From an uncultured delta proteobacterium (GTDB lineage: Bacteria > Desulfobacterota > WTBG01 > CAIYCZ01), in assembly GCA_963803975.1 (NCBI GenBank), contig CAWDOY010000018.1:1-34347 (forward strand): a DNA stretch of 34,347 nucleotides, written 5' to 3'. The notes beneath the pieces were generated by a model that searched no databases, was not told the origin of the DNA, and was given only the letters and a program-made list of their open reading frames with translations. The position numbers and the translations under genes were made by a program. Shown piece after piece: positions 2,630-30,576 of the stretch (position 1 is its first letter; each line of letters starts with the position of its first letter).

Positions 2630-3034
2630 TCACTCCCAGCCGATGGGCTCATAGCCTTTTTCGTGCAGGCAGCGGTTCACAAAGTTCATGAATGTCGGGC
2701 TTGGCTCGCGCGTCCTGAACATGCCGCTGGCAGTGCTTCCCACCACTCCCGCGGCCGCGCCTGCAGCAGCGCCTCTTCCCGCGCCGCCGTACACCGCGCC
2801 GACCGCAGCTCCGGTGGCAGCACCCACCACACCTGTTTTCGCCGCGTCTGTCGCTATCTCTTTGCCCGGGTGTGACGTGAGGTAGGCCTCAGCCATGCGG
2901 CAGCACACGTCTATATCCATCTGCGCCTGGGACTGGCCGACCTTCTGCAGTTTTGCGTTAGGATAGAGTACCGGCCGCTTGACACTGCATCCGGCAACAA
3001 GCAGGCAGATTATCAGTATTGATATTTTTTTCAT
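2630..3034 (-). CDS. Glycine-zipper lipoprotein
   Basis: Lipobox LVAGC, GAATGAAVGAVYGGAGRGAAAGAAAG zipper, C-terminal RCLHEKGY; RBS AGGAGG. Confidence 0.8.
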   Translation of the reverse strand: MKKISILIICLLVAGCSVKRPVLYPNAKLQKVGQSQAQMDIDVCCRMAEAYLTSHPGKEIATDAAKTGVVGAATGAAVGAVYGGAGRGAAAGAAAGVVGSTASGMFRTREPSPTFMNFVNRCLHEKGYEPIGWE

Positions 3035-3185: not shown

Positions 3186-4910
3186 TCAACACTGCTCACA
3201 CACTGGCTGCGAACACCCTCCGCACCCCGGTACAGCGTCACATACATCTCCTGCGCCATCGTTGTCAGCATCCAACTGCTGCGTATTACAGGCTGCAGGG
3301 CAGTTGTCGCACACATCTCCCGCGCCGTCTCCGTCAGTATCCTCCTGGTTCAGTAGCTGCACTGCCCGTTGGCAGAACAGCCAATCACACAATCAGCGTC
3401 ACTGGTGACAGGTTACGCCTGCTTTATCTGAGCCAGGCATACATGTGCCAAGGTTCTGTGCCGATTGGGTTTGTTGGGGCAGTTATCAATAGCATCAGGG
3501 ATACCATCACTATCACTATCAATTTCTTGATACCGCCATACCTCTGTACCTCCAATTCCTCCGTATTTAGTATACCGGTATGTAGCAGCATACAAGTAAC
3601 CATCATAACTCTTGAGAGCCATTACCCCGTGATTATTTGTATCACCAAGCTGGTTGTTGCTAAACTCGATAAAATCTACCCCGTCACAGGTTCTATAAAT
3701 CCGTGCACTTTTAGACATATATTCCCCTGTACCAATATACAGACAGTCGTTATACACCTCAATCGCCTCTGCCATCGTTATTATTATAGGTATCTCCTAA
3801 ACCATTCTCTCCCACCTGAGTCCAATCAATACCGTTCGGGCTGCGCCATATCTCAATCCACCAGTTTCCTGCACCGAGATAATCATTTCTGACTGTTGCA
3901 TATAAATATCCATTATAAACTATAAGCTGCCGTATCATATCTCTGTCTCTCTGATACATATCAGCAGCCATGCCGTCAATGTTTACCTGCTCCCAGTTTA
4001 GTCCGTCAGAAGTTCTCCATAATCCGGTCCCATCAATATCGTTTCTAACAGACACATAAAGCTTCCCATCAAAAACCTCAAAGGGATAAGCAAAACGATC
4101 AGTCACATTATTGAATCCATTATCAACCACTTTTGTCCAGTTGACACCATCTGCGGAGCGAAAAATCTCCGGGTGTTCTTTGCCCGCTTCAATAGCCCGT
4201 GCACTTATATAAAAGAACCCATCAAACACCACTGCACTCATCAAATCGCCCTTGTCACCGCCAGCCGGGTTTGCAAGCCAGTCATCATAATCAAAAACCT
4301 TTGTCCAGCTACTGCCATTTACCGGATTATTGGTTCGCCAGAGTTGTCCATTTTCTTTGACGGGAGCATTCTGACCATATACGGTACCTGCATACAGGTA
4401 GTCCTGGAACACAATCAGAAATTGAGTAGCTTCGCCCCCATAAAGAAAACTTTAACCGGCATGATGGGTTATCAGATACTTTGGTCCAGTGTTGTTGAGC
4501 CGTCACCATTATATGCCCATATTTCAGGACCATAAATGGGGTTGTCAGTTCCCGCGTAAAGCAGTCCATTATACACAGCAAATGAGTCATCAAACACCGC
4601 CATAATTATTTGCACCTCGCCAGTAAAAAACAGGGTCAAAACCTTCCAGATTTACCTGAGTCCAGGGAATGGACAAATCTGCAAGTGTACTGAGGACCTC
4701 TTCATTTTTATTGTAAGTCCAAGGATTAATGATGGCTTGATTCTCTGCGTCATCGAAAGGTTCCTCGACCTGGGGAAATAAAAATTCTCCGGAGTCATCA
4801 AAATATTTTGTCTTCTCTGCTTCCTGTAGCGGTTGTGCTATACATATATACGGAGAGAGCATAATTATCGAAATTAAAATGACTGTATTTCGCAAAATAG
4901 TCATATTCAT
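3186..4910 (-). CDS. Secreted beta-propeller repeat protein with C-terminal TSP3-like repeats and CGGC tail (split by several frameshifts)
   Basis: Joined fragments 4590-4910 (signal peptide), 3759-4412, 3413-3775 and 3186-3392; repeated LY(A)GT..G.E(I/L)WR(T/S).DG..W..V...G units; DSDSDGIPDAIDNCP; ends CDAVPGCGGCSQPVCEQC*. Confidence 0.72.
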
Positions 4911-5015
4911 GTTTTTCTATCTGGTTCAATTAAAAAGTGCCGTTATTGCATTTCCCCACGCCATTGCAGAAAGCCGCACTTTTAACGAAATAACATACTA
5001 CCACTACATAAAGAT

Positions 5016-5054
5016 AAAACACAGGGAGGGCCATGCTGACCCTGCCTGTGTTTT
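5016..5054. terminator. Probable terminator after the CFI-box-like gene
   Basis: AAAACACAGG-G-AGGG...CCCT-G-CCTGTGTTTT inverted repeat. Confidence 0.6.
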
Positions 5055-5070
5055 CACCATTATTTATAAA

Positions 5071-6196
5071 TTACGGCTCTTTGTTACTCTCCTCTACCTT
5101 TTTCCTAATCCCCGGCAGCATCCCATCGATCAAGGTCTTGGCCCTATTTTTTAACAACGGCCTCTGTTCCAATAACATTGTTACCGTCGGAGAGAATTTG
5201 TAATAGGTTTTTATAATTTCCTGCCCTTCAGGAGTTTTACTCAATACGTTATCCCGATACTTCCTCAGCAGTTCTGTTTCCTCTGAGTTCTCCCCATAGA
5301 TTGCCTCCGCAGCACACGGGCCTGATTGTATTGTAGTAGTAGTTGTTGGTTCTGTGGTTGTAGTTGAAAGCTGAGGTAGTGGTTGTAGTGCTTGTTGGTG
5401 AAATTGTAGTAGTCGAGGTTGTGACCGGAGATGTTGTTGACGTGGTGATTATCGAGGTGGTCACACTAACAGTACTGGTGGTGCTTGTTCCACCGTCGTC
5501 CCCGGAAGTGGTGGAGGTTGTGACTGGTTGCATTGATAGTGGTGGTGGTTGTGCTTGCCGGGGTAATGGTGACTTGTTGATAGTGCTTACCGGAGCAGTA
5601 GTGCTTGTTGATGAACTGTTGCTGATACACTGGTTAGTATCTTCATCACAAAACAAACCATTGGCACAGTCTGCATCTGCCTGACACGGCCAGTTTGCAC
5701 TTGCACTGGGCCATAAGTCATTATACCTTGTATGTTTCCGTTGAGCGTCTATAGCTTCAACTTGTAATAGTATGTTTTCCAGTCGCTACAGAGGCATCCT
5801 CAAAATTATATGATACACCATTCGTGGATGAGCCTGTGGATGGGATTAATCCTGAATTTAACCTGGTAGTGTATTGACCATTCTCTGCTTCATCACGGTA
5901 GATGTTAAAGCCAGCAGTATCGATCTTCTGAGGCAGTTACCCAGTTAATATCTATAGTATTATCTTTGTTTCAGAAGGGAAGCTGTAAAAGATGAGAGTG
6001 TCTATCACTGTAGCGGGATCGGTTGTATTGGTTGAGAGAAGTGTTGAGTTTGCAGTAGATGCGCCATCTGCATATTGAAGGATAGTACCCAAATTACCAA
6101 CAGTAAAAACATCTGCACCTTTTGCATTTTGCGGTTGCAAATTACCATGACAAGGAATAAGGCAACCATAACTTGTTTTATTGTTTTATTGTTCAT
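5071..6196 (-). CDS. Secreted Thr-rich protein with Ig-like domain and CFI-box-CTERM-like C-terminal domain (frameshifted)
   Basis: Signal peptide MNNKTIKQVMVALFLVMV; DTAGFNIYR...SYNFED...YYYK Ig-like segment; CQADADCANGLFC; long T/S linker; C-terminus PCAAEAIYGENSEETELLRKYRDNVLSKTPEGQEIIKTYYKFSP (hand-translated). Stop lies between about 5071 and 5097 depending on an indel. Confidence 0.68.
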
Positions 6197-6237
6197 AGCT
6201 TCTTTCTCTCTTTCTACACTAATCACGAACCACGAGT

Positions 6238-9200
6238 TTAGCACTGCGTCTCACACTGGGGTAGTCCGCATCCACCACAGCCTGGAGACGTATCGCACAC
6301 ATCTCCTATGCCATCACCGTCTGCATCAAGTTGATTAACATTACAGTTGTTCGGGCAATTATCCTGAGTATCAACAATGCCGTCATTATCACTGTATCTG
6401 CTAACTTGAACGGCGTTGCCGGATCCCCGAACAGGGTAAATGTCTCAATAATGTCTGTTGACAGGATTTGATTATAGGCATTTATCTTTCCTGTGTAGAA
6501 CACTGATGCCGATTCCCGTGTCCCCGTCATTGTAAATACGGTTGAATATCTTCGTCGCCAGCACTTCATGCTCGGACGTATAACCAAGGCTGGTTGAAGC
6601 GAGGCATGCAATGGCTCCCTTGTTCTGCGCACGCACAAATTCCTCGGCAAGGGAATACTGGTCAAGAAAGTTGGGAAAAAATCCGTTCAAACAGTTCAGC
6701 GCCATCACAAAGGTGAGTGTACTGCCATTGGTCAGGAGATCAACATCATTAGGCGGACTGGTTCTAAACAAATATTCGGCAGCCCAGTTATCCACTGAAC
6801 CATGCCCGGTGTAATTCGTTATAAGGCTTCCGGCATTGATCTTATTAAACAGATCAGTTCTTGCCAGAGTTACGTTGCCATAAGTGCTCAAATATACTTT
6901 TTGTGCTGTAATGTACGCAGGAAGCAATGCGGCAAGATTATTGGACGTTACTTCAAAAGCACTTTCATTATCTGCTGCCAGGATAACGCGCCTGGGACCA
7001 GGCTCCGGAGGCGCTGGCTTCATACGCTTGAATCTTTGCAACAATGTTATTGACATCGGCCGCAGTCTTGACACATAGCCTGCCGATTATCATGTCCGGT
7101 ATCGGGTCAGTGCCGCTGACGCAGGCAAACCTGTTATCCGTCGGGGTGTCCCCCAGCAGATAGGTCTCGTACAGGTACGTGGGAACATAATCAGTATAAC
7201 CCTGGCTATAAAGACCCAAATCATCCCGGTAGTCTATGTTCGCATCGCCCACTAACAGCACATAGGTCGGGTGAGACCCTGTTTTCCAGTTATTATACGC
7301 ATAGGTTAAGAAATTCTTTATGGCCTGGGCATCCTTGATCCCGTAGGAGAACTCATCATAAATGTCCTGTATCTTTGCTATCTCAACATTCAGCCCCTGT
7401 GCGGTTCGGTAAGTTTTTAATGCGACTATGTCATTATAAAAGGCTTCATTGGTGATTATAATATAGTCAATATTTGTGCGTGTTGTTTTAAGACTGGATG
7501 AGGTATCAACAACCAGTGATGCCGGACTTTTGAATTGACTTTCTTCTGCCGCATAGTAGTTTTTAACTGCTCCTGAAAGCGTATCACCAAACTTCATCGT
7601 GTAGCTGGCAGCAGCCGCCGCCGGTAATTTCTGGATTACTTATGTGTAACGTGTTCAGCGGACTGGTAATGTCAAGCAGCATGATGCTGCTGCCCGTGAA
7701 ATTGCTGACGCTAAAAGAAAAGTTGCCGGTGCCCTCGCCTTTGAACTTCAATTCATTTGTCTCCGCCACATAGGAATCATTATAATTTATCTCAAACCAG
7801 TTTGTGTAAATACGGTCAACGGTGACCCCCGCGTCAAGGATCTCTTCGATCTTGATGCTGTTGTTCCCGTTTATAAACAGGGTAGGGGAAATATTTGCTG
7901 ATATCTTCAGTCCGCTCCACCTGCCCCGACCAGGTGAAATTCTTCACCAGCGTGTTATTTACATACACTTTGGTATGATGCCCGAGCGCTGTTTCCCCCC
8001 GCAGATTCACCTTCATGGAATAATTGCCGGCCGTCGTTACAATATTGTTTAATGGGGCAGTGTAGGTAATTGACACAGGTACTGATGTCGAGGTTGGCTG
8101 TAATCTGTTCCAGAACCAGTGGTCCACACCCGCGCCATTCGGGATTGTTTCCCAGTACATTAGATCCTGTTCTCCATGATAGGTGTTCTTAAAACTTGTT
8201 TGCGCTGGGTACCCGGTCTGGCTCCCGTCCTTTAAGACCATGCTGCTGCCGTTACTTGACCCCTGGTATATCCAGTACACATTTTTCTTAGCGTATAAGG
8301 ATTTAAAAGGTTCTCCGTAAAATAGAATATACTCTCCCGCTGAGAATGTACCCGTTCCGCTGCGGTACAGAGGTATTTGATTGCCCCGGTTCTCTACCTT
8401 TATATTTGCAATGGTGGTGGCTGATAAATTTATGCCGAGGGCGGACAAGCTTTCGTAAGTAATTTTATATATCCCCGCACTCTCGATAACCGCACGTACC
8501 GCATACGGGCTTCCTTCTGTTTGCACAGATTCTATGCCTATCGCGGAGGAGAGCGCCTGGCTGCTGCTGGTAACATTGGTAACGGGCTGTGCGTTCAGCA
8601 GGCAAGACTTATAAATGTTGTCAAAAATTTCATCACCTGCTGCCGTGGTTGCTGCATTTTGATAGCTGCTGGTGAGGGGCGTTTTAAATGCGTCGGCTGC
8701 CGTAAAATTAAAGGTTATATGAACCTGGTACTTTTTATGTACGATAAGGGTTTCAGATACCGGATTATACTGAACCGGAGAAAACAGGAGCCGGGCAATG
8801 CGCTTGTCCCGCAGGTATCCGGTAAATTCAACGGTGGCCAACTCAGCGGGAGTATAAGCATTTTGGGAATAGCTGTCAAAGTCAGGAAGATACTGTTCTG
8901 TTACTGTTTTATTGCCCGACTCATCTTCGACAACAACTTGATAGGGCGCCGGCCCCAGACAGAAAATCAGGATACTCAACGGTCTCTATGGGATATGAAT
9001 GATACTTCAATATCGCATCCTTCGGGAATTTCTATCAGCTGCCCGGTTTGCAGCACAGCCGGGCTTCCGCCCTGATGTATAACTGAATAGCCCGGTATTG
9101 ATATGTTCTTGTAGGGGAGGTATTGCGATGGGGTTATATTTAAATCAGCAGCTGTACCTTCAATAACTATCTGCGTTGCGTCTTCACTTACTATGGCAAT

Positions 9201-9296
9201 GGGTTTATCTGCCGGGAATGCAGTTGAACTGTTCAGCAAGAAAAGCGTAATATAAAAAAAACAAAAAGCTATAGTAGAATATTTTATCTTTTCCAT
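6238..9296 (-). CDS. C25-family (gingipain/PorU-like) cysteine peptidase with propeptide, TSP3-like repeat and CGGC tail (frameshifted, about 1000 aa)
   Basis: Joined fragments: signal peptide; propeptide (GSPAVL..LIEIP, FSPVQYNP); GIYKITYESL..LGI / YILFYGEP segment; DYIIIT, QDIYDEFSYG, YVLLVGD, IGRL; catalytic NYTGHGS and ALNC; TLFGDPAT; ends DVCDTSPGCGGCGLPQCETQC*. Confidence 0.85.
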
Positions 9297-9457
9297 CTTA
9301 TTAATTCTCCTTATTTATAGTTTTCTCTACAATAACCGCTAATTAGTTTTTAACACCCCTGATTGTATTTCAGCAGTCAACTTTTTTTATTGTCTTCAAC
9401 AATATAATAAAAATAAAATTAAAAAAAATTATGTTATATAATATTATATCATTAAAA

Positions 9458-9928
9458 TCAGAAAAGTGCTACCTTTTTGCCACCTTGGTGATATATTTGA
9501 GTAGCTTCGCCTCCCAAGAGAAAACTATAACCGGATGGCATGTCAGATACTTTTGTCCATGTTGTCGATCCGCCTTCATTATATGCCCAAATTTCTGGGC
9601 CAAATTCTGGATTGTCAGTTCCTGCATAAAGTAACCCATTATATTCAACAAATGAGTCATCGAATACGCCGTAATTATTTACGCCTCTCCAGTAATAAAA
9701 AGGTCAAACCCTTCCAGATTGACCTGGGTCCAGGGAATAACAGCAGAAGGGGCTGCTGTGTTGCTATCTTCGAGGAGGTTCTGGTCTCCGGTAATGAAGC
9801 CGGGCGGCACCGTCCGGAAGCTGTCGGAACCGGCGGCGTGCGCTGCTCCCGGCAGGGGAAGTGCCCTGCATGGCGGCGCTGAAACCAGTGCCAGTATCGC
9901 AAGCAGCAGAAATTCTTGTGCAAACCAT
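9458..9928 (-). pseudogene. Truncated paralog of the beta-propeller gene at 3186-4910 (signal peptide plus first repeat)
   Basis: 9497-9738 is clearly similar to 4422-4670 (PWTQVNLEGFD..WRG.NNYG..DDSF..YNGLLYAGTDNP..GPEIWAYN..WTKVSD..GGEATQ), then similarity stops. Start ATG 9928 after GAGGAAG gives MVCTRILLLAILALVSA if one T is removed. Confidence 0.6.
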
Positions 9929-10364: not shown

Positions 10365-10787
10365 ATGGGCTGCAAACAATCTCCTTTACTCAAATGCCTC
10401 ACTATCATTGCGCTGCTCCTTGCTTTGGGCTGCGCTTCCCCGGTAAAAGAAAATATCCGGATACAGCCGCCGCCGGTTAATAATGCCGGGCTCACGCAGG
10501 ATGGCAAGAAGGTAGGAACCCTCACCGGAACAACGGATATCAAAGGAACCACCTATTATATTTTCAATGTTACCGAGCCGTTTTGCTTCAAATATGCGCC
10601 TCAAATAAAACGGCCTGAACTGCCCCAGGAACTCAATCAATTCCGCGACTCATATAACCTGGTAAAAAAAGATGCCGGAACCTTTTGCGCAACCGGAAAT
10701 ATCATCTTTCTTCTCAACCCCCAGACAAAAACCATAGACTATATTATTCCTCAGAATAAAATTGACCGGGTGATGGAAGTTCGATAA
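10365..10787 (+). CDS. Hypothetical lipoprotein
   Basis: Lipobox LALGC, RBS GGAG, 140-aa ORF. Confidence 0.7.
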   Translation: MGCKQSPLLKCLTIIALLLALGCASPVKENIRIQPPPVNNAGLTQDGKKVGTLTGTTDIKGTTYYIFNVTEPFCFKYAPQIKRPELPQELNQFRDSYNLVKKDAGTFCATGNIIFLLNPQTKTIDYIIPQNKIDRVMEVR

Positions 10788-19436: not shown

Positions 19437-20385
19437 CTATCGTTTCTCCTCGTATCCCTTCAGGTATTTAAAAAAATCGCTCTTGGTGCTCAGCACTACC
19501 GAACTGTCCTTGCCAATAGTCTGCCGGTAGGCATCCAGCGTCTTTAAAAACGAATAAAATTCAGGATCTTTATTGTATGCCCCGGCATAAATGCGGGCCG
19601 CCTCGCCGTCTGCCTTTCCTTTTATTTCCTGGGCCTTGCGGTATGCTTCAGAGTTTATTCGCTGCAGCTCCTTGCCCCGCTCGCCTTCTATCTTCTTGCT
19701 CTCGCCTTTGCCTTCAGAGCGGAACTTTTCTGAAATCTGCTTGCGTTCCGCGATCATGCGCTCGTAGACTTTTTTCTGCACTTCATCAACATAGTTGATG
19801 CGCTTGATGCGCATATCAATGATCTCAATGCCGAACTTCTCAAGCTTCGGTTTGGCCTGCTCCATGATGCCCTGGTTCATCCCTGCCCTGCCGAGTTTAA
19901 TGGAAATCTGCTCCTGGACGCTTTCAGCAAGACCTGCCGAATCAATCACTTCCTTCTCCAGCAGACGATTGGAGTTTCGTACCGCTTCAACAAGGTGATG
20001 GGAAGATATAAAGTTAAAGGTCGCTGAATCCAGTATATCATCAAGCTTCTTCTGTGCTGCAATCTCATTATACACCGTCTCATAGTATTTGAGCGGGTCC
20101 TTAATGCGCCAGCGGGCAAAGGTCTCTACATAGATGAAGGTCTTGTCCTGCGTCGGGTATCTGCCCGGGGTCACCGTTCCACTCAAGCAGCGTTTTGGGG
20201 AAAACGTTTGCGTTCTGAATGAACGGCAGCTTTACCTGCAGCCCCGGATCGGTAATGGGGTCACCAACCGGCTTGCCGAACTGGGTAATGACCACCTGCT
20301 CAGTTTCATCCACCGTGTAAAAGACGCCGCCGAATATAAATATACCCAGCAGCACAATAACAGCGATCAGCAGTCTGCTCTTCAT
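19437..20385 (-). CDS. hflC: FtsH protease modulator HflC (frameshift near 20160)
   Basis: YTVDETEQVVITQFGKP (20101-20385) joins DKTFIYVETFARWRI..VYERMIAER..DPEFYSF (19437-20186). Confidence 0.92.
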
Positions 20386-30126: not shown

Positions 30127-30272
30127 GTTAAAACGCTACCTGATCTTTACCTTACGGTTGGCTGTTAAACTGCGTTGCGTGCTGTAATTATATAATAGGC
30201 GAGTACGGGAAAAACTGCGCTTCCCGGTGAGCATGGAATTTATCCACGCGCTGCGTTTACTGATAAAATAAA

Positions 30273-30368
30273 TAGCCGGATACACTGAACACCCAGAATC
30301 ATCACTACCGTTGCTTCCTTCCGGACCTGGCGGGGTTCGCAACTCTTCCGTTGTTCAGGATCCGGCTA
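30273..30368 (-). ncRNA. ffs: Signal recognition particle 4.5S RNA
   Basis: Minus strand GAACCCCGCCAGGTCCGGAAGGAAGCAACGGTA domain IV motif within a long hairpin (TAGCCGGAT...ATCCGGCTA); upstream of dnaX. Confidence 0.92.
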
Positions 30369-30483: not shown

Positions 30484-30576
30484 TGGCGGAGAGAGAGGGA
30501 TTCGAACCCTCGGTACACTTTTAGGTGTACACACGATTTCCAGTCGTGCTCCTTCAGCCAACTCGGACATCTCTCC
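30484..30576 (-). tRNA. tRNA-Ser(GGA)
   Basis: GGAGAGATGTCCGAG...CACGA-CTGGAAA-TCGTG, long variable arm, GGTTCGAATCC, encoded CCA. Confidence 0.96.

Follow-up and report, generated by a model that had tools for sequence, protein, structure and literature searches.

Introduction

The peptidase PorU (PG0026; PDB 6ZA2; profile NF033707, with a related profile, NF052324, called 'PorU2'), the C-terminal signal peptidase and sortase of type IX secretion systems (T9SS), and the gingipains RgpB and Kgp (PDB 1CVR, 4IEF, 4RBM and 5MUN) are the described proteins closest to the enzyme analysed here. That enzyme is a family C25 cysteine peptidase encoded on a 34,347-nucleotide contig of an uncultured delta proteobacterium, hereafter the window, within a block of genes at positions 3186..9928 of the minus strand. 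The contig (C18) belongs to a 4.25-Mb genome that is 98% complete. To our knowledge, PorU-type sorting has been described only for the T9SS.

Two other kinds of described element meet at this enzyme and its relatives. The first is the CFI-box-CTERM domain (NF041770), for which the returned model description names no processing enzyme and on which we found no paper in the open-access literature; a preprint on myxosortase mentions neither CFI nor PorU. The second comprises peptide-modifying gene clusters, namely SynChlorMet (TIGR04248-51), HPr-rel-A (TIGR04352) and the lasso peptide clusters with kinase and nucleotidyltransferase genes (pseudomycoidin, PsmK/PsmN).

Here, we describe a computational dissection of this C25 locus and of its relatives in public genomes. 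We present evidence that the enzyme belongs to a subfamily distinct from both PorU and the gingipains, that the CFI-box and CGGC tails of its neighbours do not track it, and that a fibronectin type III (FN3)-type domain, WxT, and a gene for a short precursor peptide do. The locus is likely part of an undescribed system that processes bacterial surface proteins; no paper on such a system was found in the open-access literature.

Results

The predicted enzyme combines gingipain-type and PorU-type domains

The C25 gene (9296-6238, minus strand) encodes about 1005 amino acids when read through seven frame breaks; reading it by reference, with X at the breaks, gave 1005 amino acids in seven stop-free pieces. 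It comprises a signal peptide (assessed by eye, as for all proteins of the locus), a gingipain-type prodomain, PorU-type N-terminal domains, a catalytic domain and a tail consisting of a thrombospondin type 3 repeat (TSP3) followed by PGCGGC (6241..6393). It is an accessory paralog, the cassette-linked copy described below being located on contig C3. In a genome of the same family (G016, locus L101) the order of the three genes of the block is retained and none of them is broken (1018, 298 and 653 amino acids). A first-pass annotation, made from the letters of the window, had reported a C25 peptidase of about 1000 amino acids with an intact His/Cys dyad and a PorU-like segment, and every motif it named was located: GIYKITY (8475-8455) and YILFYGEP (8331-8308), in the segment that opens the PorU-type N-terminal region, NYTGHGS (6816-6796; catalytic His codon 6802..6804) and ALNC(LNG) (6702-6691; catalytic Cys codon 6691..6693).

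Membership in family C25 is clear, the pieces matching Propeptide_C25 (56 bits) and Peptidase_C25 (PF01364; 167 and 106 bits, cut-off 23), and the catalytic His and Cys are kept in 59/59 alignment rows. In a FastTree phylogeny of these rows (58 of 102 loci plus the window), the enzyme belongs to a clade of 49 rows (support 93) that excludes two annotated PorUs as well as seven gingipain-type C25s, which served as proxies for RgpB and Kgp because these two were not among the rows; deep nodes are weak (87-93). Records labelled Proteobacteria, Thermodesulfobacteriota or delta proteobacterium are its nearest named relatives in the tree. The same phylum also has gingipain-type C25s, with the catalytic domain directly behind the prodomain; two were tested and score best on RgpB. 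They fall outside the clade, so the grouping with degradative proteases that the first-pass annotation had allowed for was not seen among these proxies.

Profile comparisons place the clade nearer to PorU (159 bits) than to RgpB (128) or Kgp (88). The PorU model NF033707 has a cut-off of 420 bits, which neither the intact ortholog (255.7 bits) nor the C3 paralog (285 bits) reaches; its position 8 aligns at about residue 267 of the ortholog, where the N-terminal PorU-type region starts. PorU is the best Foldseek match (E 2e-30) of the predicted model of the intact ortholog (mean predicted local distance difference test score, pLDDT, 85) and also the best PDB match by sequence. Residues 247-968 of the model align to residues 24-792 of PorU (6ZA2) over 581 residues, with a Z score of 25.4 and a root-mean-square deviation (rmsd) of 6.2. 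Both the profile alignment and the structure thus put PorU-type domains ahead of the catalytic domain.

The two ends of the protein tell a different story in the same model. Its N-terminus matches gingipain prodomains (Kgp prodomain, Z 15.2), about 330 residues of PorU-type domains are inserted between prodomain and catalytic domain, and the catalytic domain alone fits RgpB better than latent PorU (Z 43.7, rmsd 1.8, 318 residues aligned). Neither the gingipain layout, in which catalytic and immunoglobulin superfamily (IgSF) domains directly follow the prodomain, nor a grouping with the proxies of RgpB and Kgp was found. An Arg 32 residues after the catalytic Cys (Arg722) has been proposed as a mark of PorU (PMC4560394). 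It occurs in both PorU rows and in five of the seven gingipain-type rows, is absent from the clade and from all 52 rows that are neither PorU nor gingipain-type, and is replaced by Ser in the window (LASTSLG, 6583..6603); because five of seven gingipain-type rows carry it, it is not specific to sortases either. Judged from the models, the enzyme is a hybrid of gingipain prodomain, PorU-type N-terminal domains and catalytic domain. The earlier claim that the GIYKITY/ILFYG segment resembles PorU more than mature gingipains is in keeping with the PorU-type N-terminal domains.

Identification of the enzyme as PorU itself was rejected: its NF033707 score stays under the cut-off, Arg722 is missing, the prodomain is of gingipain type, the catalytic domain superposes better on RgpB than on latent PorU, and the clade is a separate one. 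One of its N-terminal domains (residues 367-510 of model P0019, about 7750-8200 in the window) resembles the carbohydrate-binding jelly rolls of CBM36 and BcsB (Z about 11-12) and, on this modelled likeness, is a possible glycan-binding site.

Profile searches of the 98% complete genome gave no match to SprA, Por_Secre_tail, PorV, PorP, GldM or GldN (0/6 families), where positive controls were obtained for SprA (three of five control genomes), PorV and the tail model, and none for PorP, GldM and GldN. The absence of a T9SS-type C-terminal domain (CTD), noted earlier for the locus, extends by the tail model to the genome as a whole. Unlike PorU, the enzyme has neither a T9SS CTD nor an adjacent porV, and its ties are to a peptide cassette and to WxT.

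CFI-box and CGGC tails fail to follow the enzyme

The first-pass annotation had further suggested that a PorU-like enzyme processes another class of C-terminal tags, carried by co-oriented secreted proteins with a CFI-box or CGGC tail. A CFI protein and a CGGC protein are indeed present, although one of the two CGGC tails is the C25 enzyme's own. The middle gene of the block (5071..6196, minus strand, frame-broken) encodes a signal peptide, a WxT/FN3 domain, a small Cys module, a Thr-rich linker and a CFI-box-CTERM domain (5074..5322; profile match 5122-5310; 56.7 bits, cut-off 40). As in other CFI-box-CTERM proteins, the domain is C-terminal (the final 80 residues), stands behind a Thr-rich linker and has a Cys at its start; it differs in that no membrane helix follows. 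The second TSP3-PGCGGC tail (3189..3341, minus strand, ending at 3189) belongs to an exported repeat protein (3186..5060, minus strand, frame-broken, with a start at 5060 or 4910; ortholog L101:8805-10763), whose repeats suggest a propeller-like fold.

We profiled both tails over 30 genomes of the class, each at least 85% complete, of which 12 have the clade enzyme and 18 do not; the two sets were corrected beyond the PF01364 matches, the clade enzyme of G015 being split over contig ends and the C25 of G005 being gingipain-type. At least 11 CFI copies are found in 9/12 genomes with the clade enzyme and in 11/18 without it, and the CGGC motif in 6/12 and 5/18. Among 151 genomes of the phylum, CFI occurs in 39, 33 of which lack the clade, and is missing from three of the nine clade genomes; it is somewhat enriched with the clade (6/9 versus 33/142). 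Individual genomes are discordant: G024 has the clade enzyme with 32 WxT domains and 2 CFI domains, whereas G027 has 33 CFI domains and no C25. The C25-less genome G004 contains 65 CD-xx-PGCGG motifs, most of them tandem copies spaced by about 156 nt, which marks CGGC as part of a thrombospondin-type repeat and not as a tag. Around 80 C25 genes of public genomes, CFI was seen once, on the enzyme itself, and CGGC never. CFI-box and CGGC were accordingly rejected as processed tags, proteins bearing them being common where the clade enzyme is absent (11/18 genomes of the class; 33/39 CFI genomes of the phylum), an outcome that the first-pass annotation had itself named as refuting its proposal. 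The distribution of CFI-box-CTERM does not match that of this C25.

The C-termini of 120 homologs are of YWR type (33), YLP (28), PNGGE (18), CFI (6), WSDVI (5), CGGC (4) or other kinds (17), with 9 truncated. Enzymes ending in CFI, CGGC, YLP or other lineage-specific tails make these tails look common to enzyme and cargo rather than like a recognised signal. PorU offers a likeness in retaining its own CTD, as stated in PMC11285876.

The YLP-type motif ends 28 of the 120 homologs (P0051, P0056, P0083 and 25 more) and also neighbouring exported proteins (L012, L013, L022, L025); where a lineage is named for these homologs it is Chloroflexota, and the motif may be an export tag specific to that lineage. 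The PNGGE-type domain closes the enzymes of Brocadiae, while a WSDVI double repeat is the end of five others.

The WxT domain co-occurs with the enzyme

A motif scan revealed a third conserved domain, WxT, which the first-pass annotation had missed in the middle gene. There it spans approximately 5700..6020 (minus strand; hidden Markov model (HMM) match 5924-5772), with the landmarks DPATVID (6020-6000), DTAGFNIYR (5921-5895) and YYKL (5769-5755); the intact ortholog (L101:7890-8783, 298 amino acids) has the order signal peptide, WxT, Thr-rich linker, CFI-box. WxT opens with P-T-x-I-x-L, and aligned starts carry Thr in 28/36 and Pro in 20/36 cases. About 40 loci of the genome encode it, mostly at the C-terminus and often behind a Thr-rich linker. 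Its predicted fold is a seven-stranded FN3-type sandwich (pLDDT 94) that matches generic FN3 domains (best Z 11.0, many tied); no T9SS CTD structure is among the fold matches listed, although the two domains may yet be related. It has no NCBIfam family and only one weak Pfam match, below cut-off. Atlas clusters matching at 0.92-0.94 are unnamed, and the closest named cluster, at 0.85, carries Por_Secre_tail, which we treat as a lead only. WxT may correspond to the 'LPVEL' domain that precedes the CTD in Bacteroidota cargo. In L026 it precedes a T9SS CTD, an arrangement seen in SprA-positive genomes.

The distribution of WxT follows that of the enzyme. Of 151 Chloroflexota genomes, 23 have the C25 clade and 22 have WxT, all 22 within those 23, and 128 have neither; in many carriers, some WxT genes lie on contigs other than that of the listed C25 match. 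In the enzyme's own phylum, WxT occurs in 8/9 clade genomes and in 3/142 others, two of them weakly, so that eight of the 11 WxT genomes carry the enzyme; in the ninth clade genome the C25 gene lies at a contig end. Within the class, where exceptions occur, at least 10 WxT copies are present in 10/12 clade genomes and in 1/18 others. The 80 C25 loci, from many phyla, include WxT in 47 and at least two cassette genes in 35, against one CFI. In G065, G143 and G172 the sole WxT gene is the immediate upstream neighbour of the C25 gene. The two domains are also fused in 14 open reading frames (ORFs), 10 of which have WxT just before the enzyme core in the prodomain's place, and WxT is C-terminal on four C25 enzymes. 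Thus WxT is not always C-terminal, being N-terminal in the window gene and internal in fusions. The earlier idea of a PorU-like enzyme serving a different C-terminal tag survives with WxT in place of CFI and CGGC.

Giant fusions of passenger, WxT and C25 (1100-2950 amino acids; L052, L059, L069, L072, L078, L080, L082), from Acidobacteriota and others, form two tree groups and are candidates for self-processing surface proteins. The phylum of G176 offers no contrast, since PorU-like C25 genes (1-8 per genome, below the PorU2 cut-off) and WxT domains (1-53) are found in 61/61 genomes; since SprA is present in G176 itself, that phylum may have the two systems side by side.

A peptide-modifying cassette and its precursor gene accompany the clade

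The second clade enzyme of the genome, on contig C3, is nearly intact and lies in a cassette with genes for PqqD, a SPASM radical S-adenosylmethionine (SAM) enzyme, an HprK-like kinase, an S26 peptidase and an ABC exporter. Over the 80 C25 loci and C3, the cassette genes number 23 for S26, 23 for PqqD, 22 for radical SAM, 19 and 15 for two HprK-like groups and 13 for a probable nucleotidyltransferase. Next to the cassette genes lie short ORFs that have a YxxP leader and in most cases a Cys immediately behind an A-x-A-like or VLG-like motif, in the manner of precursors of peptides that are made by the ribosome and modified after translation (RiPPs).

The precursor gene is present in 12/12 clade genomes of the class and in 1/18 others (G011 alone). 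Eight near-identical copies lie outside the cassette in the window's genome, and five of them start less than 100 nt after a WxT domain, three of these in one tandem array. Among the best 30 of 50 precursor matches, nine are cassette copies, 15 have a same-strand WxT domain within 1.5 kb, six have neither, and none has a same-strand CFI domain.

SynChlorMet, HPr-rel-A and the lasso clusters share with these cassettes PqqD, SPASM radical SAM, an HprK-like kinase and a YxxP-type leader and, at some loci, the probable nucleotidyltransferase and the ABC exporter. The cassette proteins nevertheless score only 20-126 bits on the SynChlorMet and HPr-rel-A models, all below cut-offs of 100-400, and no lasso cyclase or B2 cluster is among the conserved neighbours of the C25 loci. 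None of the known clusters resembles the cassette in including an S26 peptidase and a secreted C25 or in scattering precursor copies beside WxT genes.

Some arrangements around the peptide genes deserve mention. On one strand of C3 (G000:C3:110800-115200; L117 and upstream), a WxT gene, heavily frame-broken genes for NiFe-hydrogenase-like small and large subunits (recognised by eye) and a precursor gene follow one another, as if the peptide closed an operon opened by the WxT gene. A 301-amino-acid ORF without family (G000:C3:186258-187160; L001:6258-7160) separates an EF-P/EpmA-like pair from the PqqD gene; in the relative L006 it forms a fusion with the EpmA-like protein. Three more PqqD-like genes are located outside the cassette (G000:C25:79966, C19:48053 and C19:38495).

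Discussion

A model for processing of WxT proteins

Domain anatomy, clade membership, co-occurrence and gene linkage suggest, on balance, that this C25 subfamily processes exported WxT proteins, possibly ligating a peptide to them, and we lean towards a model in which WxT is what the enzyme recognises and the Pro-Thr junction is where it cuts. Enzyme and cargo would be exported by Sec, with lineage-specific end tails (CFI-box, TSP3-CGGC, the Chloroflexota YLP motif or, in SprA-positive lineages, a true T9SS CTD) serving export or surface retention. After removal of the prodomain, the PorU-type N-terminal domains would bind WxT and the His/Cys dyad would cut at or near the conserved Pro-Thr junction before it. 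Cleavage sites of PorU favour Ser, Thr, Asn or Asp next to a small residue (PMC5445135). Meanwhile, in the cytoplasm, the peptide would be held by its YxxP leader and modified; the S26 peptidase would then cleave it behind the A-x-A-like motif, and it would be exported. In the last and least certain step, which we advance tentatively, the acyl-enzyme would be resolved by the new N-terminus of the peptide, mostly a Cys, the peptide taking the role that anionic lipopolysaccharide (A-LPS) has for PorU.

It is less likely than not that the matured peptide is the acceptor, an assumption under which the duplication of peptide genes next to cargo genes would make sense, as would the Cys that opens most cores. 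Equally tentative is the full form of this idea, a sorting system spread across many uncultured phyla: a PorU-type transpeptidase would cleave cargo proteins at the Pro-Thr junction of WxT and ligate them to a modified RiPP, which would be the covalent anchor or linker of surface proteins. The extra peptide genes would then, conceivably, be co-transcribed beside their cargo genes. For pseudomycoidin, PsmK is described as phosphorylating Ser and PsmN as needed for hexose addition (PMC6993621); by analogy, this phospho-glycosylation suggests how the peptide could be tied to a surface glycan.

Several observations weigh against processing at WxT or against the peptide's part in it. The catalytic domain is RgpB-like and Arg722 is absent, as described above. 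Of the 18 class genomes that lack the clade, ten still have 1-7 WxT domains, among them G027 (98% complete, 10 contigs), while G001 and G002 have the enzyme and only two WxT domains each. G011 (93% complete) has 31 WxT domains and nine precursors with no match to C25, the HprK-like kinase or the cassette radical SAM enzyme. The WxT domain of the window and its ortholog stands just behind the signal peptide, where a cut before it would free about 20 residues, and small signal-WxT-anchor proteins flank C25 genes in L035, L041, L053, L066 and L076. Some precursor cores lack Cys (L010, L023, L102, L113, L115, L121, L128), the nucleotidyltransferase has no match in the window's genome, and the window contains no precursor gene. 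Finally, C25 neighbours supplied part of the WxT alignment, and genomes that are related do not count as independent samples. The missing cassette and C25 of G011 could reflect an assembly gap or a recent loss; most of its precursor copies lie directly behind WxT genes.

Alternative readings of the family and of this copy

The strongest competitor, though we consider it less probable than processing, is that WxT is a docking module: by binding either the enzyme or the matured peptide it would assemble a surface complex, and the protease would act on another target, for example the peptide, its own prodomain or proteins from outside. Docking accounts for the same co-occurrence, FN3 folds are common binding modules, and the Arg of PorU is missing. 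The N-terminal position of WxT in the middle gene and in the small anchored neighbours fits docking equally well, and WxT is internal in 10 fusions and C-terminal on four enzymes. On the other hand, the Pro-Thr immediately ahead of the first strand is conserved in different phyla and at different positions; in the window's genome most WxT domains end their reading frame, often behind a Thr-rich linker, like a sorting domain; and the PorU-type N-terminal domains are kept.

A separate matter, independent of what the family does, is whether this copy is functional. Relative to the intact ortholog, DNA alignment shows seven frame-changing breaks in the C25 gene (near 9000, 8959, 7900, 7610, 6993, 6506 and 6395), and the other two genes of the block are broken as well. 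It is rather unlikely that this is a decaying pseudogene cluster of the strain, with the C3 paralog doing the work, even though seven breaks in 3 kb compare with 2/19 tested genes split elsewhere in the assembly and a truncated duplicate lies upstream; with the block worse than background, local decay keeps some probability. Against decay, all seven breaks are insertions of 1-2 nt in the window, there are no in-frame stops, identity to the ortholog is 73-88% in four long segments and 62% at the N-terminus, and the C3 cassette likewise has two breaks. Three of the extra bases are missing from related-strain contigs, that at 6994 in two of four runs and those at 8959 and 8997 in one of four each. 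The frame breaks are probably an artefact of assembly. RNA run X19 spans parts of the locus as contigs of relatives and gives no evidence of transcription.

A degradative role in nutrient uptake, as a gingipain-like protease whose gene associations reflect shared surface-protein islands, is improbable for the enzyme. It has a gingipain-type prodomain and a catalytic domain that superposes best on RgpB and Kgp, and sediment metagenomics reads secreted C25 genes as protein-degrading capacity, at 41-45% of signal-peptide peptidases (PMC6752024). Yet gingipain-type C25s of the same phylum fall outside the clade, the matches with WxT (22/23) and precursor (12/12) are far tighter than island sharing, and CFI proteins of the same islands do not track the enzyme.

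A sortase for CFI-box-CTERM and CGGC tails, as first proposed, is very improbable despite the single co-oriented cluster here and in G016, the 31 CFI matches and five CGGC tails of the genome, and the moderate enrichment in the phylum, given the class profile, the discordant G024 and G027, the C25-less G004 and the enzymes that themselves end in either tail.

Implications

The broad idea of the first-pass annotation holds up once WxT takes the place of the tags as partner and a peptide pathway is added; the present analysis contributes the ruling out of CFI and CGGC and the co-occurrence counts. If WxT processing is borne out, a sister subfamily with its own partner domain would extend PorU-type sorting to envelopes without T9SS, in Desulfobacterota-type bacteria, Chloroflexota, anammox Brocadiae, Acidobacteriota and large sulfur bacteria, and orphan HprK/PqqD/radical SAM cassettes would gain a job unrelated to antibiotics. 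Were the peptide the acceptor, this would be a new kind of system. Some of the C25 genes counted in sediments may be sorting enzymes. CFI-box-CTERM loses C25 as a candidate enzyme and stays an orphan domain.

Other features of the window

The block at 3186-9928 has a lower GC content (0.42-0.48) than most of the contig (0.50-0.61). Besides its three frame-broken genes it contains, in the same orientation, a remnant (9458..9928, minus strand), the truncated duplicate of the N-terminal part of the 5060-3186 gene, with 81% identity to the ortholog over 69 amino acids. Beyond it, 10365-10787 encodes a lipoprotein-like ORF without family, and a similar ORF lies upstream of C25 in L101. On the other side, 125-1692 holds an anti-sigma (zf-HC2) gene followed by two genes for ZraP/Spy-like periplasmic chaperones, 1842-2552 a flavodoxin-fold reductase and 2630-3034 a glycine-zipper lipoprotein.

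The remainder (10931-34347) consists of ordinary genes: a SAM methyltransferase, polyprenyl synthetase, ComF-like, rsfS, nadD-like, proA, proB, rpmA, a Band 7 pair, NuoE/F-like, 2-oxoacid:ferredoxin oxidoreductase, recR, ybaB, dnaX, a deaminase, an IS200 transposase and GH94. One Band 7 gene is apparently split at about 20100-20190. Two RNA genes are present, the signal recognition particle (SRP) RNA at 30271-30367 and a tRNA at 30487-30576.

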